A program made the translations under genes and the position numbers. A stretch of DNA of 64,000 nucleotides, from assembly GCA_963714275.1 (NCBI GenBank), contig CAVQNT010000002.1:672001-736000 (forward strand), written 5' to 3'. Shown here piece by piece: positions 11,552-50,396 of this stretch. Positions within the stretch are counted from its first letter, which is position 1, and every line of letters starts with the position of its first letter. Origin of the DNA: Candidatus Bathyarchaeota archaeon (lineage in GTDB: Archaea > Thermoproteota > Bathyarchaeia > Bathyarchaeales > DTEX01). The notes below the pieces were generated by a model. That model saw only the letters and a list, made by a program, of their open reading frames with translations. It searched no databases and had not been told where the DNA came from.

Positions 11552-11775
11552 AATTCATCAACTAACGTTTGTACCTTTTAGAAAATAACTTTGACGCTGA
11601 AATGAACATGAATGCGCTGAAAATTGTGAAGAAAACAAAAATACGTAAACGTTAAATCAGAATCTAAAGTAGGGTCACGAAGGCTAAGGATGAACGCAAC
11701 CGCCTCGTGTGAACTTGATCCCTCACTTTGCACCACTCGCAGAAATATGCGTACGCTTTCCTCATATAAATCTTT
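11552..11775 (-). promoter_or_regulatory. his operon promoter (AAAGATTTATAT) and ~190-nt structured leader with uORF MRDQVHTRRLRSSLAFVTLL (11726-11664)
   Basis: BRE/TATA near 11775-11763; GTG uORF inside a long bulged hairpin; U-rich tract downstream. Confidence 0.55.
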
Positions 11776-11830
11776 CCATAGCAAATGACCCTAAAGGTGT
11801 ATGTTGAACTTTTTTATAAAATTTCCGAAT

Positions 11831-37833: not shown

Positions 37834-39096
37834 CTAAGCCTCCTTCAACAATCTTCTAGGGTCAGTTAACTTACCCTCAACCGCCGTGGCAGCTGCAGTC
37901 GCAGGCGAAACCAAGAAAATCTGGGACTCCACGCTTCCCATCCTCGCCTTAAAGTTGCGGTTAGACGTGGAAACACACACTTCGCCAGACGCCAAGATGC
38001 CTTGATGCCCACCAGCGCACGGTCCACAACCCGGATTGCAGACTGCACACCCAGCGTTAACAAAAACCTCGATTAAACCTTCCTTCAAAGCCTGCATGTA
38101 AACCGTCCGCGACGCAGGGGTAACAATCACACGTACTCCTTTCTTCGCTTTCTTTCCTTTCATGATTTCCGCCACTATTCGAAGGTCATACATTCGCCCG
38201 TTTGTGCACGAGCCAATGAACACCTGATTGACCTCTTTTCCCTCAACCTCCGAGACGGATTTAACGTTGTCAACTAAGTCTGGGCACGCAACTTGAGGTT
38301 CAAGGTTTGACGCATCAAAACGAAGCTCCCCACAATACTCGGCGTCCTCATCACTCTTGAATCCCGCGTGAGGCTTGTGCCCCAGCGATTTCAGGTAAGC
38401 AGCGGTCTTCGCATCAGGTTCAACCAAGCCCGTTTTAGCGCCCATCTCAATAGCCATGTTCGAAAGAGTTAGCCTCCCTTCAACATCCATCGCCTTAATG
38501 GTTGACCCCTGATATTCTATGGCTTTATAGCTGGCTCCGTCAGCCTTCACGGTTCCAACAATCTTCAAAATCACGTCTTTAGGGAAAACCATAGGCGGTA
38601 GCTCACTGTCTACGGTAACCTTCAATGTTTCAGGAACCTTGAACCACAGCTTCCCCGATAAGAAAACAGCAGCCATCTCCGTTGAGCCTATACCCGTGGC
38701 GAAGGAGCCAATTGCCCCGTAAGTGCACGTGTGAGAGTCAGAGCCGACGACGAGACCGCCCGGAAACGCCAAACCAGATTCGACCATGAGCTGGTGGCAC
38801 ACGCCTGAGCCCACCTCGTAAAAGTTGGTTCCGTGTTGAAGGGCAAACTCCCGCAGGTTTTTCTGAACCGCTGAAATGGCTTCGTTGGCGCTTGGCGCAA
38901 CATGGTCGATGACAGCCGCGACCTTGGAGGGGTCCCAAAGCCGTTTTCCACCCATCTCCCTGAAGGCGTCTATCACGAGCTTCGCCATCGAATCGTGCAT
39001 CATGGCAGCATCAATGTTCGCGATGACGATGTCTCCCCTGTAGGCTTCCTTTCCCGAAGCGTGGCTAAGAATTTTTTCGGATATGGTCTTGCCCAT
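37834..39096 (-). CDS. leuC: Isopropylmalate/homoaconitase-type dehydratase large subunit (paralog 2)
   Basis: [25 protein letters not shown]. Confidence 0.88.
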   Translation of the reverse strand: MGKTISEKILSHASGKEAYRGDIVIANIDAAMMHDSMAKLVIDAFREMGGKRLWDPSKVAAVIDHVAPSANEAISAVQKNLREFALQHGTNFYEVGSGVCHQLMVESGLAFPGGLVVGSDSHTCTYGAIGSFATGIGSTEMAAVFLSGKLWFKVPETLKVTVDSELPPMVFPKDVILKIVGTVKADGASYKAIEYQGSTIKAMDVEGRLTLSNMAIEMGAKTGLVEPDAKTAAYLKSLGHKPHAGFKSDEDAEYCGELRFDASNLEPQVACPDLVDNVKSVSEVEGKEVNQVFIGSCTNGRMYDLRIVAEIMKGKKAKKGVRVIVTPASRTVYMQALKEGLIEVFVNAGCAVCNPGCGPCAGGHQGILASGEVCVSTSNRNFKARMGSVESQIFLVSPATAAATAVEGKLTDPRRLLKEA

Positions 39097-39177
39097 TTTC
39101 CAAACCTCAACAAACTGAATATACCATTCTAAAAAAGGTTGTCCTCCAAAAAGAAGGTTACGCCACTCGTTTGATGC

Positions 39178-40705
39178 CTAATCTTGTGGTTTGTCTTGAC
39201 GTCTCTGTCTCGCCAGCAGCTTGTTTATGCCATTAATCATGGCTTCGACGCTTGCCATCACGATGTCTTCGCGGGCGCCCCTTGCGGAAATGACGTTTCC
39301 GTCTTTGCCCTCGACCTTTATTATGACCTCTGCAACAGCGTTCGACCCGCCTGTCAACGCCTCGAGACGGTACTCCGTTAACCGCACATTTGCGAGATTA
39401 TTCGTTATTTTCTGAATAGCCTTAATGGCAGCGTCCACTGGACCGACGCCTGTTTCAGCAGCAATGTAATCTTTGCCGTCAAGCGTCAGCTTCACCGACG
39501 CTGTGGGGATAACGTGGATGCCGGTTGTTACCGCGAAATCGGTCAGATTAATGATCCGTTCTTCAGCAGCCTCGCCGATGACGGTTCTGGAAATGGCAAA
39601 CAGGTCGTCGTCCGTCACGGTTTTGCCTTTGTCGCCCAAGTCTTTCACGCGGTTCACAATCTCCAGAAGCTGAGCTTCGTTCGGATGAAGCCCTGACTCT
39701 TCAAGTTCAGCCTTTATCCCGTGTTTCCCGGCGAGCTTGCCAGCTATCAGCCTTCTCCGTCTGCCTACGACCTCTGGGCTGAACGGTTCAAAAGTCAAAG
39801 GCTCCACGGTCACGCCTCGCGTGTGGACGCCTGACTCGTGCGAGAAAGCGTTTTCGCCGACGATAGCCTTGTTCGGCTGAATCATGATGCCCGTTAATCG
39901 GGAAACAAGCCTTGAGGTGCCGTAAAGGAGCTGCGTGTTTATCCTTGTCTTCTTTTTGTAGATGAGCTGAAGCCCCATCACGACCTCTTCCAGCGACGCG
40001 TTCCCCGCTCTTTCTCCTAAACCGTTCACGGCTACATGGACTTGGGATGCACCCCCGACCACTCCAGCTAAAGAGTTCGCAACAGCTAAGCCGAAATCGT
40101 TGTGGCAGTGAACGCTTAAGGGAGTCTTCAAAACGGCTTTAAGGTCCCGAATCGAGCTTTTCCATAGAATTGGGTTTCATGATGCCCACGGTGTCCGGAA
40201 TGTTGATTCGGTCTGCTCCCGCTTCTTCTGCTACTTTGCAGATTTTCTTCAGAAAAGCTATCTTAGTTCGCGTCGCATCCATCGGAGAAAACTCGCAGAC
40301 GACTCCGTGGTCCTTAATGTACTGGACTGAGTCCAGCGCAGCTTTCAAAACCTGTTCAGGAGTCATGCCTAAAGCGTACTTCATCTGGACTTCTGAGGTT
40401 GAGATAAAAGTATGAATTGAATTTGGGTTGCACGCCAAGGCAATGTCCAAATCGTTCTTCTTTGTTCGGGTTAAACAGCAGACCTCAGCCTTCAAACCTG
40501 CGGACACGATGTTTTTGATGGCTCTTTGTTCACCCTCGGACGACGATGGAAACCCAGCCTCAATCGTGTCGACGCCTAGATTGTCGAGCTGCACAGCAAT
40601 CTCCAACTTCTGTTCAGGCGTAAGAGACACGCCAGGCGTCTGCTCTCCATCCCTCATGGTTGTATCGAAAATTCTGATTTTTTCCATGTCTTTCTTATCC
40701 TCCAA
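39178..40705 (-). CDS. leuA: 2-isopropylmalate synthase family with regulatory domain (frameshift near 40140)
   Basis: [33 protein letters not shown]. Confidence 0.85.
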
Positions 40706-40715
40706 AAACCGTTAC

Positions 40716-41747
40716 CTAAAGATTCAATTCCGCAATCTCGGCAGCTATGGCTTCACCCATCTGAACCGTTGTGAGCTTGCCTCCGAAATCTGGAACCGTT
40801 AATCCCTTGCTTAGGGCTTTAACCATGCCTTCTTCGACTGCGTCAGCTGCCTTTTTACACGTAGGATCGTTGTGTTTTTCGCTTAGCCATTCAAGCATCA
40901 TCTTCGAAGCCAAAACCATCGAACACGGGTTAGCTGTGTGCTTGCCAACTCTCGTAGGCGCAGCCCCGTGGACGGGTTCAAAAAGGGCAAAGTTGTCGCC
41001 AATATTCGCGCCCGGAGCCATACCGAGTCCGCCAACCAGCTGGGCTGCCTCATCCGAGAGGATGTCGCCGAAAAGGTTCGTCGTAACAATCACGTCGTAC
41101 TCTTGGGGTTCCTTGATCAGCCTCATCGAAGCCGCGTCAACGTACTGTTCGTTGAAGATTACGTTCGGATACTTCTTTGCGACTTCCCTGCAAACCTCGG
41201 CAAAGAGCCCGCACGTCTTCCTCAAAACGTTGGCTTTGTGGACAGCTGTAACTTTTCTTTTGCCGTTTCTTTGCACCACTATTTCGAAGGCTTTTTTGGC
41301 TATGCGTTCGCTTCCTTTTCGGGTGATGACTCTTAATGCGATGGCAGCATCGTCAATCATGAACTCGAAGCCCTTGTAGAGTCCCTCCGTGTTTTCCCTC
41401 ACAATAACGAGGTCGATGTCACCTCTATGGCACGGCACCCTAGGATACGCCTTTATTGGACGAATGTTGGCGTAAAGGTCAAACATCATCCTCAACTTAA
41501 CAACAACGTCAGCAGCAGTTTCGCCCACTGGTCCCTTAAGGCATACATGAGAGTCACGAATCGCCTCAACAGTTTCTTCGGGAAGCGCAACTCCCCTTTT
41601 TTCCAGACAAGCGTCACCTGCCTCCAATTTAGTGAAGCCAAGCTTAAGACCAAACTTTTCCTGAACCGCATCCATGACGCAAAGCGTGGTTTCAGTTAAT
41701 TCTGGACCGATTCCGTCTCCCGGAATTAGGGCGACTTTGTATTTCAC
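40716..41747 (-). CDS. leuB: 3-isopropylmalate dehydrogenase family
   Basis: GDGIGPE, RENTEG, HKANV, NLFGDILSD, EPVHG. Confidence 0.9.
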   Translation of the reverse strand: MKYKVALIPGDGIGPELTETTLCVMDAVQEKFGLKLGFTKLEAGDACLEKRGVALPEETVEAIRDSHVCLKGPVGETAADVVVKLRMMFDLYANIRPIKAYPRVPCHRGDIDLVIVRENTEGLYKGFEFMIDDAAIALRVITRKGSERIAKKAFEIVVQRNGKRKVTAVHKANVLRKTCGLFAEVCREVAKKYPNVIFNEQYVDAASMRLIKEPQEYDVIVTTNLFGDILSDEAAQLVGGLGMAPGANIGDNFALFEPVHGAAPTRVGKHTANPCSMVLASKMMLEWLSEKHNDPTCKKAADAVEEGMVKALSKGLTVPDFGGKLTTVQMGEAIAAEIAELNL

Positions 41748-42244
41748 GGGTTTTTTCCTCCTTTCTTTTTCAGATGAGCGATTAAACCTCCGTCCTGCAG
41801 AATCTTGAGTATGAATTCGGGAAGCTTCGTTGCCTTGATGGTGCGGTTCCGTGTTTCGTTCACGATTCGTCCTTCTTCAAGGCTGACTGCGAGCACATCG
41901 CCTTCCTCGACCTCTTTCGAGACGTTTGGGCTTTCAAGAACAGGCAACCCGATGTTGATTGCGTTCCTGAAAAATATTCGGGCAAAGGACTCGGCAAGTA
42001 TGCACTTTACGCCAGCATACTTTAGAGCCAACGGAGCCTGCTCACGGCTTGAGCCACACCCGAAGTTTTTTCTAGCAACAATGATGACTCCGTTTTTGGC
42101 TTTTTCCGAAAAGTTCGGGTTCAACCCTTCCATCGCGTGCTTCGCCATCTCCGTTGGGTCCAGCAAAGTCAAGTATTTTCCGGGAATAATGGCGTCGGTG
42201 TTTACGTCGTCTCCGAAAACCGTGGCTTTACCTGAAACCTTCAA
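41744..42244 (-). CDS. leuD: 3-isopropylmalate dehydratase small subunit
   Basis: [23 protein letters not shown]; TTG start just after the leuC stop. Confidence 0.9.
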   Translation of the reverse strand: MKVSGKATVFGDDVNTDAIIPGKYLTLLDPTEMAKHAMEGLNPNFSEKAKNGVIIVARKNFGCGSSREQAPLALKYAGVKCILAESFARIFFRNAINIGLPVLESPNVSKEVEEGDVLAVSLEEGRIVNETRNRTIKATKLPEFILKILQDGGLIAHLKKKGGKNP

Positions 42245-42248
42245 ATTG

Positions 42249-43512
42249 CTAAGCCTCCTGAAAATATGCTGGGTCAACAATCTTGCCAGCAACAGCTGAA
42301 GCAGCAACGGTAGCTGGAGAAGCCAAGTATATTTGGGCTTCAGGGCTGCCCATTCTTCCTACAAAGTTTCTGTTAGAGGTGCTAACGCAGACTTCGCCAG
42401 CAGTAAGTAATCCCATGTGACCGCCGAAACAGGCTCCACACGTAGGATTGCACACGAAACCCCCAGCCTTCACAAAAACCTCGAACAAACCACGCTGCAA
42501 AGCCTGCATGTAAACCTCCTGCGAAGCTGGAGTAACGATCAGCCTCACGTCTCTAGCGACCTTTCTTCCATCAAGGAACCTTGCTGCTAGTTCAAGGTCT
42601 TCCAGCCGACCGTTTGTGCATGAGCCTATGAAAGTCTTGGTCAATTTTGGTTCCTTCGACGTCTTTGACTGGCTTCACGTTGTCAACCGAGTGCGGGCAT
42701 GCAACCTGAGATGTAAGCTTGTCCAAGTTCACCTCAACCGTTTTTTCGTATGTCGCATCTAGGTCGCTTGTTAAAACCTTGAATGGCTTATCGGTGACGG
42801 TTTTAACGTATTCCAGAGTAACCTTGTCTGGGTTGATTAAGCCCGTTTTGGCGCCCATCTCAACCGTCATGTTGCAGATAGTCATTCGTCCGCTCATACC
42901 GATTCCGCTAATGGCTGAGCCCGTAAACTCTACAGCCCTGTAGTTTGCGCCGTCAGCTCCGACCTCGCCAATTACGTGTAATATGAGGTCTTTGGGAGCC
43001 ACGGACTTCTGGAATTTTCCGTCCACCACGATTCTGATGGACGATGGAACCCTAAGCCAGATCGTTCCAGTGGCGAAGACTCCAGCCATCTCGGTTGAGC
43101 CTATACCCGTAGCGAAGGAGCCTACGCAACCATAGGTGCACGTGTGAGAGTCTGCGCCTACTACGAGTTCGCCTGGGAGAACGTGACCTTTCTCAACCAT
43201 GACTTGGTGGCAAACGCCTCCGTGACCTACGTCATAAAACAACGGAATGCTCTGTTCTTTGGCGAAGGTTCTCATGATTTTGTGAAGCTCAGCTGACTTC
43301 ACGGAGTCAGCGGGAACATGATGGTCCAGAATCATGACTACGCGTTTCTTGTCCCAAACTTTCGGAGTTCCGATTTCCTTGAACGCTTGGATGGCGAGTG
43401 GACCAGTGATTTCGTTAATCATTGCCTCGTCGACTTTGGCGTCTACGATGTCGCCTAGTTTAACCTCATCCTTTCCCGAAGCCGACGCGAGAATTTTCTC
43501 CGCAATGTTCAT
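42249..43512 (-). CDS. leuC: 3-isopropylmalate dehydratase large subunit (frameshift near 42640)
   Basis: [30 protein letters not shown]. Confidence 0.9.
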
Positions 43513-43541
43513 TATCTTCGTTTTTCCATGATGTCTTAATG

Positions 43542-44532
43542 TTACTTTTCGATGCCTGAGGTCTTCCTAATGGTCTTGCCAACCTGTTCAAGCGGATGCT
43601 TCTCAATCTCGTCCATGAGGGCTTTGAGCTTCTTTTCTCCAGACTTGTGATCCTCAACCCATTCTTTGGCGAAACTGCCGTCTTGGACAGCTTTTGCGGC
43701 TTTTTTCATGTTTTCTTTAACGTGGCTGTCAACAACTTTAGGACCTACTATCAGTCCGCCGTATTTTGCTGTGTCTGACACCGCTCGAAGCATGCCGATG
43801 ATTCCTTTCTGGTATATGAGGTCCATTATGAGTTTGGCTTCGTTGCAGGCTTCGAAGTAGGCTAGCTCAGCTGGATAGCCGTTTTCAACGAGCACCTCGA
43901 ACCCGTTCTTTATGAGTCTCAATTAAGCCGCCAACCAGAACCGTCTGTTCCCCAATGAGGTCGCTTTCAGTCTCATCCTTGAAAGTGGTCTCGATAACTC
44001 CAGCCCTTGTGCTGCCAAGCGCCTTCGCAGCAGCCAAAGCGGTCTCCATGGCTTTGCCTGAAGGATTCTGGTAAACAGCAACCAATGCAGGCACCCCGAA
44101 GCCGTTTTGATATGTTTCCCTTAGCCTGATGCCTGGACTTTTTGGAGCAACCATTATCACGTCCACATTTTTTGGTGGGACAATCTGTTTGAAGCGGATG
44201 TTGAAGCCGTGGGCGAAGTCCAAGGTCTTGCCTTCAGACAGGTAGGGAGTGATTGATTGCTTGTAAATGTCGGGTTGAACCATGTCGGGCACCAAAACGA
44301 AGATAACGTCAGCCTTTTTCGCTGCTTCTGAGATTTGGTAGACTTTGAATCCGTCTTTTTTGGCTCTTTCCCAAGATTCTCCTCCTGACCTGAGGCCTAC
44401 GATGACATTTAAGCCTGAGTCTCTCATGTTCTGAGCTTGCGCGTGTCCTTGGCTGCCGTATCCGATTACGGCTATTGTTTTGTCTTTCAACGGATTTAGA
44501 GATGCGTCTTTTTCGAAATATACCTTAACCAT
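43542..44532 (-). CDS. ilvC: Ketol-acid reductoisomerase (frameshifted)
   Basis: [37 protein letters not shown]. Confidence 0.95.
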
Positions 44533-44551
44533 TTTCCGAATTCACCTTTCC

Positions 44552-45073
44552 TTACTCCATTCTTGTTGATCTCATTCCTCTTGATAATGCAGTAACGCCT
44601 GTTCTCGCAATTTCCTTCAAGCCGAAGGGTCTCATCAACTCGATGAAGGCGTTTATTTTGTCCGAGTCGCCCGTGATTTCGACGACTAACGAATCGTGCG
44701 CAACGTCAACGACGTGTCCCTTAAAGATTTCAGTGTAGTTGATGACGTCCGACCTGACCTTCGTGTCAACCGTGTTCACTTTGACAAGCGCCAGCTCCCT
44801 GGAAACAGTGTTTTCAGGCTCCAGAATGCTGACTTTAACGACGTCTATGAGTTTCTGGAGCTGCTTAACGCTTTGTTCAACCATTCTTTCGTCTCCCTTG
44901 ATCGTCACCGTCAACCGGGCAAGGTCCTTCTGTTCTGCTGCTCCAACAGTTATGGTTTCAATGTTGAAGCCTCTCCTTCGGAACATGTTGGAGACGCTGT
45001 AGAGCACACCGGGCTTGTGTTCAACGATTGCTGATACTATATACATTTTTTCTTCTTTCGGCATACAAATCAC
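44552..45073 (-). CDS. ilvH: Acetolactate synthase small subunit
   Basis: EHKPGVL, RRGFNI, RELALVKV, EIARTG. Confidence 0.93.
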   Translation of the reverse strand: MICMPKEEKMYIVSAIVEHKPGVLYSVSNMFRRRGFNIETITVGAAEQKDLARLTVTIKGDERMVEQSVKQLQKLIDVVKVSILEPENTVSRELALVKVNTVDTKVRSDVINYTEIFKGHVVDVAHDSLVVEITGDSDKINAFIELMRPFGLKEIARTGVTALSRGMRSTRME

Positions 45074-46746
45074 CCAATCATTATCTTGTCAATTCCAGCT
45101 CCCGGAGGAACCATTGGGAACACGTTCTGCTCAGGCGAAATCGGCACGTCAACGACCGTTGTGACGTCGCTCTTGATTGCTGCTTTCACGGCTTTCACGA
45201 ACTCCTCTGGTGAGCCAACACGAACACCTTGAGCCCCATAAGCCTCCGCTAACTTGACGAAGTCAGGATTCTTTCCAAGGTCGATGCCAGAGTAACGTCT
45301 ATCATAGAACATCCTCTGCCACTGTGCCACCATGCCTAAAACCGAATTGTTCAGCACTATGACCGTGACTGGAATTTTCCAAGCGACCGAGGAAGCCAAG
45401 TCCTGTTCAGTCATGACGAAACTTCCGTCGCCAGCAATGTCCACAACAGGAACGTTGGGGCACGCGACTTTTGCTCCGAGAGACGCGGGAAAACCGAAGC
45501 CCATTGTGCCAAGACCGCCTGAACTGATGAACGTTCTAGGCTCGTAAGATTTCAGATATAAAGCTGCCCACATCTGGTTCTGGCCAACTTCAGTGGTTAT
45601 TATCGCGTTTTCAGGCAGTATCTTCCGCAGTTCGACTAACAGGTGTATAGGAGTCATCCCGTCCTTGTTCTCCATCTCAGCCTGCTGCTTCTTCTGTTCC
45701 TGGATCCTACTCATCCACGTTGACCGTTCCTTCTTACGGAAACTTTTTACGAGACGGTCTTGGATGGCTTTCAGGGCAATCTTCGCGTCGGCAACGATCG
45801 GAACGTGCGGTCTGATGTTTTTTCCAATCTCAGCAGGATCAATGTCTATGTGAATTATTTTTGCGTCTCGACAGAACGTTTCAGCTTTTCCTGTGCTTCT
45901 GTCCGTGAACCGCATTCCAACCGCAAGCAACACGTCTGCTTCGGGAACAATTTTGTTCGCGGTTATGGTTCCATGCATTCCCAGCATCCCAAGCGATAAT
46001 GGATGGTTTTCGGGGATGCAGCCTTTCCCCATAAGCGTTGTCGAAATGGGTGCAACGAGAAGCTCAGCTAAGGCTAAAAGCTCCTGCGACGCCCCTGAAG
46101 TGATCACTCCGCCGCCAGCAACAATAACAGGTCTTTCAGCTTGAATCAACAGTTTCACTGCTTTCTCTATCTGCAGTGGGTGAGGCTCAACGTTTGGTTT
46201 GTAACCTCGTAGACTTATACCATTGTCGAATTCCATGTTGTCCACTTCTGTCTGGGTGTCCTTGGGCAAGTCAACAAGCACAGGTCCAGGTCGACCTGTT
46301 GAGGCGACATAAAAAGCTGTTTTCACTATCTTGTGAATCTCTTTGGCACTCGTGATTTGAAAGTTGCATTTGGTTATCGGTGTCGTTACGCCTACTATGT
46401 CGGTTTCCTGAAAAGCGTCTTTCCCTATGAAGGCTCTTGGAACGTTGCCTGTGAAAGCAATGATCGGCGAAGAATCCATGTATGCGTTGGCTATGCCTGT
46501 GACGAGGTTTGTTGCCCCAGGTCCAGAGGTTGACATGCAAACGCCGACTCGTCCACTTGCGCGGGCGTATCCGTCAGCCGCGTGAGCTGCACATTGTTCA
46601 TGCCTCATTAGGATGTGTTTTATGTCTGAGTCGTAAAGCACGTCGTAGATGGGTAACACGTATCCTCCAGGTATGCCGAAGATGACTTCGACTTTCTGTT
46701 TCTTCAAGGATTCGATTAGAGCTTTGGCGCCTGACATTTTCACCAT
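45070..46746 (-). CDS. ilvB: Acetolactate synthase large subunit
   Basis: RHEQ.AAH.ADGYAR, SGPGATN, DAFQE, GDGSF..NN ThDP motif. Confidence 0.96.
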   Translation of the reverse strand: MVKMSGAKALIESLKKQKVEVIFGIPGGYVLPIYDVLYDSDIKHILMRHEQCAAHAADGYARASGRVGVCMSTSGPGATNLVTGIANAYMDSSPIIAFTGNVPRAFIGKDAFQETDIVGVTTPITKCNFQITSAKEIHKIVKTAFYVASTGRPGPVLVDLPKDTQTEVDNMEFDNGISLRGYKPNVEPHPLQIEKAVKLLIQAERPVIVAGGGVITSGASQELLALAELLVAPISTTLMGKGCIPENHPLSLGMLGMHGTITANKIVPEADVLLAVGMRFTDRSTGKAETFCRDAKIIHIDIDPAEIGKNIRPHVPIVADAKIALKAIQDRLVKSFRKKERSTWMSRIQEQKKQQAEMENKDGMTPIHLLVELRKILPENAIITTEVGQNQMWAALYLKSYEPRTFISSGGLGTMGFGFPASLGAKVACPNVPVVDIAGDGSFVMTEQDLASSVAWKIPVTVIVLNNSVLGMVAQWQRMFYDRRYSGIDLGKNPDFVKLAEAYGAQGVRVGSPEEFVKAVKAAIKSDVTTVVDVPISPEQNVFPMVPPGAGIDKIMIG

Positions 46747-46749
46747 TTT

Positions 46750-46878
46750 AGATCCTTCCTAGTTATCTTTGGTTCAAAGGATCTTTCGGTTTGCATGTCC
46801 TCATCGAGAACTGCACAATAGACATTGGGAATGTTTAAAAATCTTTTTGGGCTATGTGCTGGAGAAAACATTGGGAAT
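46750..46878 (-). promoter_or_regulatory. ilvB proximal promoter, repeated ACATTGGGAAT sites and SD-occluding hairpin
   Basis: BRE/TATA AAAAAGATTTTTAAA near 46848-46834; ACATTGGGAAT at 46822 and 46868; AGATCCTT/AAGGATCT inverted repeat (46784-46777 with 46757-46750) overlaps the GGAAGG SD. Confidence 0.55.
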
Positions 46879-46884
46879 CTCGTT

Positions 46885-47016
46885 TTAGAAGCGGAGGAAA
46901 AGGTCCCTCCGTACCCGAATATCCCTCACTTTTTTGTCCTCCAGAGGAAACGAAACCGAGACTACTATCAACAGGATACTTATAAGCTTTTTGAACTCGT
47001 TGTTCTGTGTAAGCAT
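46885..47016 (-). CDS. Putative ilv-leu leader peptide MLTQNNEFKKLISILLIVVSVSFPLEDKKVRDIRVRRDLFLRF (or short form MRDIRVRRDLFLRF from GTG 46929)
   Basis: Translated by hand; LISILLIVVSV run; GGAGG SD before the internal in-frame GTG. Confidence 0.5.
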   Translation of the reverse strand: MLTQNNEFKKLISILLIVVSVSFPLEDKKVRDIRVRRDLFLRF

Positions 47017-47036
47017 TTTCAATGTTATGCTAAATA

Positions 47037-48580
47037 TTATTTGCCTGATGTAGTGTTGTTTTCTGTTTTGTTGTGGTTGCTCATGAGGACGTTCATGCCG
47101 TTCAGCATGGCTTCGACGCTTGCCATAACGATGTCTCCGTGGGCTCCCATCGCCGTGGCTATTCTGTCGCCTTTCCTCAGCCTAACAATGACTTCGACCA
47201 AGGCGTTTGTGCCCCCCGTTATGGCGTTAACGTGATATTCATCAAGCCTGATAGGTTCAACGGCGGAAACAGCCTTCCTTATGGCGCTCATCGCAGCGTC
47301 AACTGGGCCAATGCCCGTAGCAGCCTCAGTTAAAAGCTTACCGTTAAGGTTCAGCCTAACCGAAGCCGTGGGTGTAACGCGGTCTCCGGTCACGACTGTT
47401 AGTTCCTCGAGCTTTATCGCCCGTGTACTCGGTAACTCCATGATGGACTCAGCGACCGCCTGAAGGTCAGCGTCAGTGATCCGTTTGCCCTTGTCGCCCA
47501 ACGTTTTTACGCGTTGAAAAATCTCGTTCAGCTGCACATCGGTTGGATTGAGACCCATTTCTTTCAGAACCGCTCCGATGCCCCGTGACCCAGCGAGTTT
47601 TCCGACTGCCAGCCTTCTTGTGCGTCCAACAATCTCCGGCGGAATCGGCTCGTATGTCAAGGGATCAGCAAGTATGGCGTGGGTGTGGATGCCAGCTTCG
47701 TGAACGAAGGCGTTTTCGCCGACGATTGCCTTGTTCGGTTGAACCGGGATTCCGGTGAGGCGCGAAAATAGCAGTGAAGTGTCATACAGCCGTTCAGTCT
47801 TCATGGACATTTCGACGTTGTAGAGCAGCTTCAATGAAACAACGACTTCTTCTAAAGCCGCGTTTCCAGCTCTTTCACCCAGCCCGTTTACTGTGACGTG
47901 AACCTCTTCTGCTCCTGCTTTTAGGGCAGCTATCGAGTTTGCGACGGCCATGCCGAAGTCGTCGTGGCAGTGCACACCTAGGTGAGCTTCTGGGAAAGCC
48001 TGCTTAAGTTCTGAATAGAAATCGTTCGTCTTTTCCGGCGTCAATACGCCTACAGTGTCGCACGGAGTCACCCTGTCTATGCCTGCTGATGTGCCTGCTT
48101 CTATCATGTTTTTGAGGAAAGCTGTGTCTGCTCGGGTTGCGTCTTCAAGTCCTAGCTCGACAAGCAGTCCACGCGTTTTGGCGTATTTGACTGTTTCTCG
48201 GGTGAGCTTAAGCACGTCTTCCCTTGTCTTTTTGAGTTTATGTTGGATGTGCAGGTCTGAGGCTGGGATGACGAGGAAAACTGAGTTCGAGCCGCTTTCA
48301 ACGACTGCGTCTACGTCTTTTTTGACTCCTCTGGCGAAGCTGCATATTTCAGCTTTGAGTCCTTCTTTGACTATGCTTTTGATGGCTTCCATTTCGCCTT
48401 CGGATGCAGCAGCGAATCCCGCCTCGATGACATCGACTCCTAAATGGTCAAGCTGCTTGGCTAAGGCTGTTTTCTTTTCAGAAGTTAAAGAAGCTCCGGG
48501 GGTTTGTTCGCCGTCTCTCAGGGTTGTGTCGAAAATTCGGATTTTACTTGGGAAGCGGTTGGATAAAGCAATACCCCATT
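47037..48580 (-). CDS. cimA: Citramalate/isopropylmalate synthase paralog (start approximate, 5' indel)
   Basis: [16 protein letters not shown] upstream of the listed ORF; HCHDD, GERAGN, regulatory domain; leuA versus cimA assignment is uncertain. Confidence 0.7.
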
Positions 48581-48713
48581 TTCAGTAACACCGAAACAAC
48601 AACGCATATGCAAGGTGTATAAAAGCCTTTTGGTGCCCAAGTCCAGACAGCGAAACTCCGAAACACATTGTAAATGATTTTAAAGTATAGGGAAAAGGTT
48701 TAAGAGCGTACGG

Positions 48714-50396
48714 TTGAACAAGTTTTTGGTTTTAGGTTTGAGAAGCGATACTGTTAAGCGTGGATTGGAGAGGGCTCCTCACCGGGCAATTTGGAAGTGC
48801 CTAGGGCTAACCGAAGACGATTTCAGTAAACCCTTCATTGCAGTAGCTAACAGCTTCACCGAAACGGTTCCGGGACACATGCACCTAAACAGGCTTGTTG
48901 AATCTGTTAAGGCTGGAGTTCAAGCTGCTGGAGGAGTGCCTTTCGAGTTCAATACGATTGCCATATGCGATGGCTTAGCCATGGGCCACGAAGGAATGAA
49001 CTATTCTCTTCCCTCAAGGGAACTGATAGCTGACTCCGTGGAGGTCATGGTTCAGGCACACAGGTTCGACGGGCTTGTATTGTTAACCAACTGTGACAAG
49101 ATCACGCCTGGAATGATGATGGCTGCAGCGCGTTTAGATATTCCATCAATCGTTGTGACGGGAGGCCCAATGCTTTCAGGCTTCTATAAGGGTAGAAAAG
49201 TCGATGTTACTGCGATTTTTGAAGCTGTGGGAGAAGCCTCAGCAGGAAAAATAACAGAAGAAGACCTCAAAGAAATCGAAGACAGGGCATTCCCCGGATG
49301 CGGCTCCTGCAATGGCATGTACACAGCGAATACCATGGCATGCGTAGCTGAATCCATCGGAATGTCTCTGCCAGGTTGCGCCACAGCCTTGGCTGTCTCA
49401 TCCGAGAAGGCAAGAATAGCTAAAAAAAGTGGAGAAAGGGTCGTCGGATTAGTTAAAGAGGAGACAAAACCTTCCGCCATCCTGACGCGGAAAGCGTTTG
49501 AGAATGCCATAACGGTGGACATGGCGCTTGGAGGTTCAACCAATACTGTTCTACACTTGAAAGCCATAGCCAACGAAGCTGGTATAGGCTTGCCATTGGA
49601 AGTCTTCGACGAGAAAGCGAGAAGGACGCCTCACCTGTGTGACATGAGGCCAGGAGGACCACATGACCTCGCAGAACTCGACGCGGCAGGAGGAATCCTA
49701 GCTGTCATGAGGCTACTCAGCGACAGGCTTCATTTGAACGCCATCACCGTGACTGGTGCTACGGTCAAAGAAAACATCAAGGACGCGCCCTTATACGACA
49801 CTGACGTAATTCGACCTTTGGAAAATCCTATTCATAAAGAGGGCGGGATAGGTGTACTAAGTGGAAACTTGGCTCCTAATGGCGCTGTTGTGAAGGTTAC
49901 CGCCGTGCCTTCTAAAATGCTTGTTTACAAGGGTCCAGCAAGAGTTTTTGACTCCGAAGAGGAGACGATGAAGGCGATACTTAAGAAACAAATCAAAGCT
50001 GGAGACGTTGTCGTCATACGTTACGAAGGACCAAAAGGCGGACCAGGAATGAGAGAGATGCTTTCCCCAACAGCAGCAATAGCTGGCATGGGTTTAATCG
50101 AGTCCGTGGCTTTTGTAACTGATGGCAGATACTCAGGCGCAACGAGAGGACTCTGCATAGGTCACGTTTCTCCTGAAGCAGCTGCAAGCGGTCCCATAGC
50201 AGCTTTGCAGAATGGCGACATAGTCCAAATCGATGTTCCGAAAAGGACCTTAAATGTCGTGTTAAATGACGAAGAGTTGAAGAACCGTTTGGCTAAGTGT
50301 AAGCCTAAGCCACCAAAGATTCAGAAGGGCTATCTCAGAAGGTACTGGGCTCTTGTGCAGTCAGCAAACGACGGCGCAACGTTCAGGACTCCATGA
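48714..50396 (+). CDS. ilvD: Dihydroxy-acid dehydratase
   Basis: [43 protein letters not shown]. Confidence 0.96.

Follow-up and report, generated by a model that had tools for sequence, protein, structure and literature searches.

A conserved short leader open reading frame upstream of the ilv-leu operon in Bathyarchaeia is a candidate ribosome-read amino-acid sensor

We analysed a window of 64,000 nucleotides (nt) from a Candidatus Bathyarchaeota archaeon (assembly GCA_963714275.1, contig CAVQNT010000002.1, positions 672,001 to 736,000), in which the minus strand carries an ilvB-ilvN-ilvC-leuCDBA cluster behind a 290-nt gap. The gap contains a short leader open reading frame (ORF) that is conserved upstream of ilvB in related genomes. 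The best explanation places this ORF in a lineage-specific leader-ORF family of one Bathyarchaeia order, built on the module Met-Arg-Asp-x-hydrophobic-X, in which X encodes the amino acid that the genes behind it supply. We consider it probable that the ilv leader works as a ribosome-stalling sensor of the leader-peptide attenuation type, and we prefer this explanation because a cognate codon lies at a fixed distance from the start across four kinds of locus for amino-acid supply. An earlier, sequence-only reading of the window had placed a translated regulatory leader of the ilv-leu operon in this gap; the proposal is supported, and extended, by the conservation of the short ORF in 42 leaders and by sister leaders of his, trp and cys loci. 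The leader region has the following features, given by window position from upstream to downstream:

46885..47016, minus strand: ORF of 43 amino acids rich in Ile, Leu and Val (ILV); judged not to be a gene, as it is not conserved and overlaps the conserved putative promoter
46979..46993, minus strand: B recognition element (BRE) and TATA box, CAAAAAGCTTATAAG, with TTATAA at 46985-46980; inside the non-conserved 43-residue ORF
46954..46960, minus strand: predicted transcription start region, 22-26 nt past the TATA box, the usual archaeal spacing
46944..46950, minus strand: pyrimidine element a, TTTCCTC, whose complement GAGGGA lies at the start codon
46938..46942, minus strand: Shine-Dalgarno (SD) sequence GGAGG, 8 nt ahead of GTG
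46885..46929, minus strand: leader ORF, GTG, 14 codons and TAA, (M)RDIRVRRDLFLRF
46912..46914, minus strand: codon 6, GTA (Val), candidate sensor, GTA in 40/40 long forms
46906..46910, minus strand: internal GGAGG, element e, the 5' arm of GGAGG-N8-CCTCC, invariant or nearly so
46894..46896, minus strand: codon 12, CTC (Leu), second candidate sensor, following Phe or Tyr as in codons 5-6 of the short form
46893..46897, minus strand: CCTCC, element f, the anti-SD-like 3' arm
46747..46884, minus strand: untranslated spacer of 138 nt between the leader ORF and ilvB, with TTTT at 46868-46865 and TTTTT at 46841-46837

Leaders were collected from the ilvB loci of 29 related genomes and from 32 exact matches to the core motif in a genome contig database, and 42 remained after removal of duplicates: 40 of the long form and two (L024 and L028) of the short form. 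The evidence is comparative and comes from metagenome-assembled genomes of one Bathyarchaeia order, and counts across these relatives are not independent of one another. Thirty-one of the 32 exact matches belonged to Bathyarchaeota or Bathyarchaeia records and one to an 'uncultured archaeon'; an ilvB-like ORF lay within 190 nt downstream in all 31 matches with enough sequence. With a covariance model, 36 of 40 family genomes gave a match to the leader (E of 2e-10 or better), and the model's matches over 151 sampled genomes of the class were confined to that one family. Leaders were also seen in three further families of the order, and one family (L029) had no gap at all. Scanning the contig database with AAGTGAGGGATNNNGTT proved too unspecific, giving at least 119 matches that were mostly bacterial chance ones.

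Alignment of the ilvB upstream regions, a comparison that the sequence-only reading had suggested, retained the short ORF in the 42 leaders and not the long one. The 42 non-redundant leaders share GGAGG, a 7-10 nt spacer and a GTG-initiated frame of some 14 codons (MRDxRVRRNRFLxx). Conservation extends from the predicted transcription start to the end of the short ORF, in the order pyrimidine stretch, GGAGG, A-rich variable spacer, GTG AGG GAT Ann CGG GTA yGG AGG ... TwC CTC C, and stop. GGAGG stands at -12 to -14 in 40/42 leaders, with GAGGAG or GGTGA in the two short forms. All three SD variants fit the genome's 16S rRNA, whose terminal sequence is GGATCACCTCCT, and are complementary to its 3' end CACCTCC. 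The spacer from SD to start varies in both length and sequence.

The coding frame itself bears signs of use. The start is GTG in 41/42 ilv leaders and ATG in L024, and the stop is TAA in 20, TGA in 18 and TAG in 4. There are 14 codons in 28/42 leaders (stop at codon 15), within a range of 10-19. The sole insertion or deletion between start and stop is an exact in-frame 18-nt (six-codon) deletion in L024 and L028, which come from more distant families. Functional swaps of start, SD and stop, together with the in-frame deletion, are marks of a translated ORF as far as sequence comparison can tell. A leader-peptide attenuator requires a short leader ORF with translation signals, and an ORF of this kind, predicted to be translated, is present here.

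Cognate codons are likewise in place, with Val at codon 6 and Leu or Ile at codon 12 in each of the 40 long forms. Codon 12 encodes Leu in 38/40 (CTC 35, CTA 2, CTT 1) and Ile in 2/40, and the codon before it encodes Phe in 20, Tyr in 19 and Leu in 1 (n=40). Several of the changes at codon 12, from CTC to CTA, CTT, ATC or ATT, weaken the hairpin. Both short forms have Leu at codon 6. The long form can be read as the short form, MRD|RFL, with xRVRRN inserted, and thus as two tandem modules, R2-D3-x-R5-V6 and R8-N/D9-x-F/Y11-L12. GTA is the rarest Val codon in the genome (0.16), and CTC is among the rarest Leu codons.

Sister leaders with a common N-terminus and a cognate codon 6 were traced through the start GTGAGGGAT and the downstream genes; a weak covariance-model match led to the his type. 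The window holds one such his leader:

11664..11726, minus strand: his leader ORF, (M)RDQVHTRRLRSSLAFVTLL, with the His codon CAC at codon 6, 112 nt upstream of hisG
11770-11765, 11734-11731 and 11551, minus strand: TATA box TTTATA, SD GGTG and ATG of hisG, respectively

The his ORF begins GTG AGG GAT CAA GTT CAC, encoding (M)RDQVHTRRL..., and precedes hisG-hisD-hisC; HisG scored 157 bits on TIGR00070 (cut-off 75.75). His occupied codon 6 in 21/21 genomes (CAC 19, CAT 2), and hisG was confirmed downstream in the 14 loci checked. The tail of the his ORF shows synonymous changes of Leu and Thr codons. A very T-rich tract, TATTTTTGTTTTCTT, follows the his leader ORF (within 11552-11790, minus strand).

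In the trp class, codon 6 was TGG in 19/22 trpE loci (L268/L301 in G005:C17, L285/L307 in G022:C74 and 20 further trpE loci, L302-L325), in at least five different N-terminal contexts: MRDKV, MRDRF, VRC(C/H)(I/V), MRDHL, MRDII and MGDLV. The trpE assignment rests on 513.8 bits on TIGR01820 versus 512.05. One genus has ATG GGT GAT (MGD) in place of GTG AGG GAT and lacks GTGAGGGAT. The trp leader ORF is 7-35 codons long and ends at or overlaps the putative trpE start, and in both closely viewed trp leaders the trpE reading frame extends, without a stop, back into the leader ORF.

The cys class lies 135-155 nt upstream of tRNA-Cys(GCA) and takes the form M-R-D-x-hydrophobic-Cys, starting with ATG, TTG or GTG. 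Codon 6 was TGC in 11 and TGT in 2 of the 13/13 loci (L104/L329 in G014:C7, L286/L328 in G020:C105, and L330-L340). SepCysS (378.6 bits on TIGR02539, cut-off 365.25) followed tRNA-Cys in 7/11 loci viewed, about 30-110 nt away, with an intervening gene in one. In G014 and G020 a peptide-type ABC ATPase stands after tRNA-Cys in place of SepCysS. Just upstream of tRNA-Cys there is a T-rich stretch, a candidate site of the tRNA's own promoter. A second tRNA-Cys paralogue has no leader ORF. The only tRNA-Cys found in the window's genome (G000:C2:848209-848284, L343) is this paralogue, 83% identical to the leader-linked type and with an ordinary TATA-like upstream region.

A search of the window's own genome for [AGT]TGAGGGA leaders yielded only the ilv and his leaders; two other candidates, at C1:32810 and C1:102832, were set aside as having no plausible downstream gene, and trpE was not found in this assembly (91% complete). 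A nascent-peptide arrest sequence would show selection on its residues and not on its codons. Across the classes, M-[R/G]-[D/C]-x-[V/F/I/L]-X recurs in different codons, whereas within the ilv class the codons are invariant.

The leader is preceded by a promoter-like sequence. In archaeal promoters, an A-rich BRE and then an AT-rich 8-mer stand about 25 nt ahead of the point where transcription starts. A TATA-like motif was found 48-60 nt upstream of GTG in 41/41 leaders with at least 75 nt of upstream sequence, and the block GCTTCGTTCC after the predicted transcription start is conserved. By analogy with the consensus, the conserved BRE/TATA motif presumably acts as a promoter. The best explanation for the gap between the cimA-like gene and ilvB is that it provides the ilvBNC-leuCDBA operon with a promoter and a 5' leader of about 210 nt. 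A proximal promoter near 46840, also considered in the earlier reading, did not hold up in the comparison:

~46848-46833, minus strand: TATA-like sequence AAAAAGATTTTTAAAC in the spacer; not conserved, and missing in the four closest leaders, L003-L006

AAAAAGATTTTTAAAC closely resembles the BRE/TATA of other leaders in the leader-ORF family. In this genome it might serve as a second promoter, closer to ilvB.

From the observed conservation, coding signatures and placement of cognate codons in four kinds of operon, we infer translation, stalling and every part of the output. Scarcity of charged tRNA-Val or tRNA-Leu would make the ribosome pause at codons 6 or 12; with good supply, it would reach the stop codon and leave. 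Its position would then set the amount of transcript that reaches ilvB, the favoured route being early termination or a pause at the T-runs of the 100-140-nt spacer, and the conserved GGAGG/CCTCC segments would form a ribosome-sensitive RNA element. A more specific version, whose chances we see as evenly balanced, is a modular sensor in which a nascent Met-Arg-Asp-x-hydrophobic motif is followed by one 'programmable' codon that has been re-targeted to Val/Leu, His, Trp and Cys. The peptide context would heighten sensitivity to the next aminoacyl-tRNA, and the output would act on the transcript and not on initiation at the main gene.

At least for cys, the output would have to act on the transcript, because a tRNA gene cannot be regulated via translation initiation. 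For ilv, we tentatively favour transcript completion in the spacer that depends on ribosome position, at somewhat less than an even chance; ribosome-sensitive pairing of CCTCC would rank second and protection of the 5' end by a paused ribosome third. In trp leaders, with an ORF that runs up to or into the trpE start, translation could instead be occluded. Archaeal termination needs no hairpins, and runs of T are the archaeal intrinsic termination signal. T-runs of at least 4 occurred in 33/42 ilv spacers (shuffle mean 16.3) and of at least 5 in 14/42 (shuffle mean 5.4); runs of at least 5 occurred in 10/14 his spacers versus 5.9 when shuffled and in 7/12 cys spacers versus 3.8. A fixed oligo-T terminator after the ORF was considered and rejected, as TTT(N0-2)TAG lay within 65 nt of the stop in only 11/42 leaders (2.2 expected). 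Mid-leader CCCTC was likewise dropped as a sequesterer of the ilvB SD: it occurs in 24/42 leaders and is missing in the window's own genus.

A number of observations weigh against ribosome stalling as the explanation of the ilv leader. Only 2-4 of the 13 codons of the ilv ORF are ILV codons, with no run and no enrichment, and the first module has Arg, not a hydrophobic residue, ahead of the Val codon; for these two reasons Val 6 may be conserved for the sake of the RNA. The first half of the ORF is invariant even at synonymous sites (codons 1, 2, 5, 6 and 8 never change), whereas in ilvB of 23 of the same genomes 0/215 columns with an invariant residue keep one codon. Because the leader codons are invariant while those of ilvB vary, coding is not the sole constraint, and the first half could be held at the nucleotide level by RNA structure, a bound factor or a DNA site. 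Three of the 22 trp loci depart from the pattern: one has Trp at codon 8, another has TAG at codon 6, and the third has no Trp. T-runs are missing in 9/42 ilv spacers and their position is not fixed, and the shuffle control for them ignores sequence relatedness, which inflates the test, as well as intergenic T-richness. None of the listed RNA runs contains the stretch; the yield of three metatranscriptome runs from the same study was a single partial contig of 90-95% likeness, inside ilvB only.

The RNA folding results belong on the same side. The three candidate helices (a/GAGGGA, GGAGG/CCTCC and a loop-presenting one over codons 10-14) showed no covariation above shuffles, and Rfam gave no match in 46747-47036 at E up to 10, including its leader families (Leu, His, Trp and Thr; ilvB-OMG and ilvH). 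Thirty-nine leaders were folded with the ORF masked as if by a ribosome stalled at codon 6, stalled at codon 12 or in the act of terminating. The ilvB SD and start were then unpaired with a probability of 0.41, 0.44 and 0.45, compared with 0.45 when free, so that no consistent switch was seen; with the codon-6 stall, accessibility rose in 3 leaders and fell in 10. An attenuator of the bacterial kind would have mutually exclusive terminator and antiterminator hairpins with a U-tract, and in this leader the sole consensus helix is GGAGG/CCTCC, with no U-tract after it. That hairpin-terminator expectation may not hold for an archaeal leader.

The candidate helices are conserved as invariant segments that complement each other. 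Element a and GAGGGA form pairs in 78.8% of cells over 37 distinct sequences, and they show no covariation because the partner is invariant. The core pairs of e and f form in 33-37 of the 37 distinct sequences and never covary. Element f is complementary to the internal GGAGG, to the SD GGAGG and to GAGGGA at the start codon, and RNAalifold paired CCTCC with e on one alignment and with the SD on another. The two-helix structure gave a covariation score of 0.126 against a shuffled mean of 0.124, with 80.0% of cells paired in both cases, and the third candidate helix tested alone showed no excess over shuffles. Of the switchable RNA that had been proposed for this gap, the conservation of the complementary segments stands, and the switch itself found no backing in covariation or in a consistent effect on the ilvB ribosome-binding site under constrained folding.

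One rival to ribosome stalling places the function in the nucleic acid itself. In that case the conserved block would be a site for a trans-acting factor (an RNA-binding protein, a small RNA, or a DNA operator past the transcription start), the ORF would be incidental or constitutively translated, and a general amino-acid regulator would bind GTGAGGGAT, which the ilv, his and cys leaders share with part of the trp leaders. It would account for the invariance of GTGAGGGATAnnCGGGTAyGGAGG at synonymous positions, set beside the 0/215 of ilvB, and for the over-representation of AAGTGAGGGAT in family genomes relative to its reversed control (for example, 9 vs 0 in G018). It also suits the lack of covariation that would point to a self-contained RNA fold. 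However, it leaves unexplained why a pathway-matching codon stands five triplets after the start in four operon classes, and why other working signals substitute for start, SD and stop. The genus whose trp leaders begin ATG GGT GAT keeps Trp at codon 6 without GTGAGGGAT, and the distance from the TATA box to GTGAGGGAT is about 50 nt in ilv compared with about 38 nt in the his leader. We regard a site of this kind as unlikely.

Alternatively, the leader ORF might be translated and regulatory without sensing branched-chain amino acids in particular; it would report general translation capacity, or load ribosomes constitutively or stabilise the mRNA near its 5' end. The MRD N-terminus and the layout are common to leaders of unrelated pathways, and the ilv ORF is Arg-rich, not ILV-rich, its first module having no hydrophobic residue ahead of codon 6; all of this is what such a non-specific upstream ORF (uORF) would predict. 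Against it, the cognate codon 6 is fixed in the his, trp and cys leaders, which confines the idea to ilv, and even there Leu or Ile at codon 12 survives nucleotide changes. We therefore think it quite improbable.

A T-box-like or riboswitch-like RNA would read uncharged tRNA or a metabolite directly, with the triplet as its specifier and with no translation of the ORF. There is one cognate triplet per leader, as with a specifier codon, and the neighbouring nucleotides are strongly conserved. However, a T-box would be recognised by Stem I with its specifier loop, a T-box sequence and an antiterminator, and the leader had neither an Rfam match at E up to 10 nor a structure supported by covariation; the compensatory changes that would mark a riboswitch were not found in the leader either. 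Moreover, the triplet always stands in frame, five codons past an SD-backed start and followed by an in-frame stop, while its surroundings differ by class. Taken together, these points make such an RNA very unlikely.

The sequence-only reading had drawn attention to the 43-residue ORF and had left two alternatives, a long ILV-rich peptide or a short form alongside a coincidental ILV run. Every feature it described was found where it had been placed: the ORF at 47016-46885 (minus strand), MLTQNNEFKKLISILLIVVSVSFPLEDKKVRDIRVRRDLFLRF, with 16/43 ILV residues and 9/11 in LISILLIVVSV; the in-frame GTG at 46929, 8 nt past GGAGG (46942-46938); CGGAGG (46911-46906) opposite CCTCCG (46897-46892); TTCCTC complementary to GAGGGA at the start codon; TCTCG (46961-46957) opposite CGAGA (46882-46878); and the BRE/TATA CAAAAAGCTTATAAG at 46993-46979. 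Comparison of the related leaders favours the short form. Runs of at least 9 ILV per 11 residues occur in 12/5539 (0.22%) of the ATG-initiated ORFs of 35-55 amino acids in this genome; the run is unusual among them, yet it is not conserved as coding sequence. An in-frame ATG upstream of GTG is absent in 31/42 leaders, only 4/42 have one far enough upstream to take in the TATA region, and most of the 42 have an in-frame stop 0-17 codons upstream of GTG. The frame is interrupted already within the same genus (L006; also L018), and the predicted transcription start lies downstream of its ATG. As the ILV run coincides with the conserved BRE/TATA, present in 41/41 leaders, and with the stretch down to the predicted transcription start, the long ORF has the appearance of a by-product of promoter sequence. 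A classical attenuator peptide with many ILV codons, translated from RNA that reads through from the upstream gene, for which the presence of the ORF and the rarity of its run may be cited, is hardly credible given the missing upstream ATGs and early stops, the break within the genus, the lack of an SD ahead of the ATG at 47016 and the position of the run on the TATA box and promoter-proximal sequence. The likeness that had been drawn to enterobacterial ilv leaders with their ILV runs does not extend to the conserved ORF, whose 2-4 ILV codons do not exceed average protein composition.

The genes around the leader are as follows:

47037-48392, minus strand: upstream synthase gene of the isopropylmalate/citramalate/homocitrate synthase family, followed by the 290-nt gap and ilvB
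46759-46754, minus strand: ilvB's own SD, GGAAGG
45070..46746, minus strand: ilvB, acetolactate synthase large subunit (796.4 bits on TIGR00118, cut-off 538.35), heading the ilvB-ilvN-ilvC-leuCDBA cluster

Downstream of ilvB follow ilvN, ilvC and leuC/D/B/A-like genes. The upstream gene had been labelled cimA; its membership of the synthase family is borne out (535.3 bits on NF002085, cut-off 517), and the narrower name is not, the citramalate synthase models staying below their cut-offs. Its match begins at profile position 65. Partial matches were also seen for ilvC (43885-44532; profile positions 1-205 of 337 only), leuC (42592-43512; 1-292 of 415) and the leuA-like ORF (39178-40131; 197-503 of 504). 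Several genes of the ilv-leu cluster (37834-48392, minus strand) thus look split or truncated, by frameshifts that would be either assembly errors or pseudogene lesions. On the opposite strand, a TTG-initiated ORF of 136 amino acids (46825-47235, plus strand) extends across all of the leader and the end of the upstream gene. This ORF is unsupported and probably spurious, though a gene caller that accepted it could mask the leader. A scan of 44000-50000 with Rfam gave four weak matches outside the leader, all under the gathering score.

One further locus, L087 (G006:C14, at about locus position 1500), has a TATA box, a pyrimidine stretch and GTG AGG GAT GTA GGG AGG TGA (VRDVGR). It has no SD and no ilvB nearby, and no ilvB orthologue was found in that genome. 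It may be a decayed ilv leader.

If ribosome stalling is the right explanation, archaea would sense the supply of charged tRNA by ribosome position on a leader ORF, and one codon past a fixed peptide context would appear sufficient for this. Leader-ORF control would extend to a tRNA gene and to the SepCysS pathway, by which Cys-tRNA is made in a tRNA-dependent way, and on the modular version leader-peptide attenuation would have been re-invented with the archaeal transcription machinery. The leader also allows a direct test of the effect that a trailing ribosome has on archaeal RNA polymerase or on factor-dependent termination. Its layout of SD, start codon, R-D-x-hydrophobic and pathway codon also gives a search rule for uncultured archaea, and the elements could serve archaeal genetics as small, portable, amino-acid-responsive controls.

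The closest known systems are the bacterial leader-peptide attenuators, such as trpL, hisL, leuL and ilvL/ivbL of Enterobacteria, which need coupled transcription and translation and hairpin terminators. The Bathyarchaeia leaders resemble them in having a short ORF in the 5' leader with codons for the end product, in the use of rare codons (here GTA and CTC) and in the presumed role of ribosome progress as the sensor. Unlike them, they occur in an archaeal host and have one or two cognate codons at a fixed place past a conserved N-terminal motif instead of a run. They also lack demonstrable terminator and antiterminator hairpins with a U-tract and any Rfam leader match, and one member of the family precedes a tRNA gene. 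T-box riboswitches share with them the single cognate triplet per leader and targets in amino-acid biosynthesis and tRNA charging (for cys, tRNA-Cys and SepCysS), but here the triplet is in frame in an ORF that a ribosome could read, and T-box structure and Rfam matches are absent. Arrest peptides such as TnaC, SpeFL and the fungal arginine attenuator peptide likewise have a conserved short nascent motif directly ahead of the regulatory site. In contrast to the TnaC/SpeFL type, the variable element here is a codon that tracks the pathway, and there is no sign of ligand binding by the peptide.

Among uORFs described in bacteria, the Corynebacterium ilvBNC mRNA has a conserved one, the ilvB-II motif, which is reported to regulate ilv expression (PMC10272879). 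As is reported there, a conserved uORF upstream of ilvB was first recognised as a nucleotide motif; the difference is that ilvB-II is bacterial, and the Rfam scan, with no match here, shows no relation between the sequences. Mycobacterial uORFs that respond to a single amino acid include polycysteine leaderless ORFs (bioRxiv 10.1101/834739) and alanine sensing at whiB7 (PMC10274678). There too, short uORFs reportedly use their cognate codons to inform downstream genes of how much of one amino acid is available. Those uORFs are bacterial and of other architectures; the archaeal leaders differ in the R-D-x-hydrophobic context ahead of a single sensor codon and in the reuse of the design for four amino acids. 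For archaea, passages of one paper (PMC11456600) name uORFs as no more than a possibility, and full-text searches, judged from titles and abstracts, returned no description of amino-acid-sensing leader ORFs, which is not proof of absence. On the comparative evidence, the Bathyarchaeia leaders look like the first case of leader-peptide-type amino-acid sensing in archaea. What is new relative to the bacterial attenuators is the archaeal setting, the single codon past a conserved peptide context, its reuse for four amino acids, and the extension to a tRNA/SepCysS locus.

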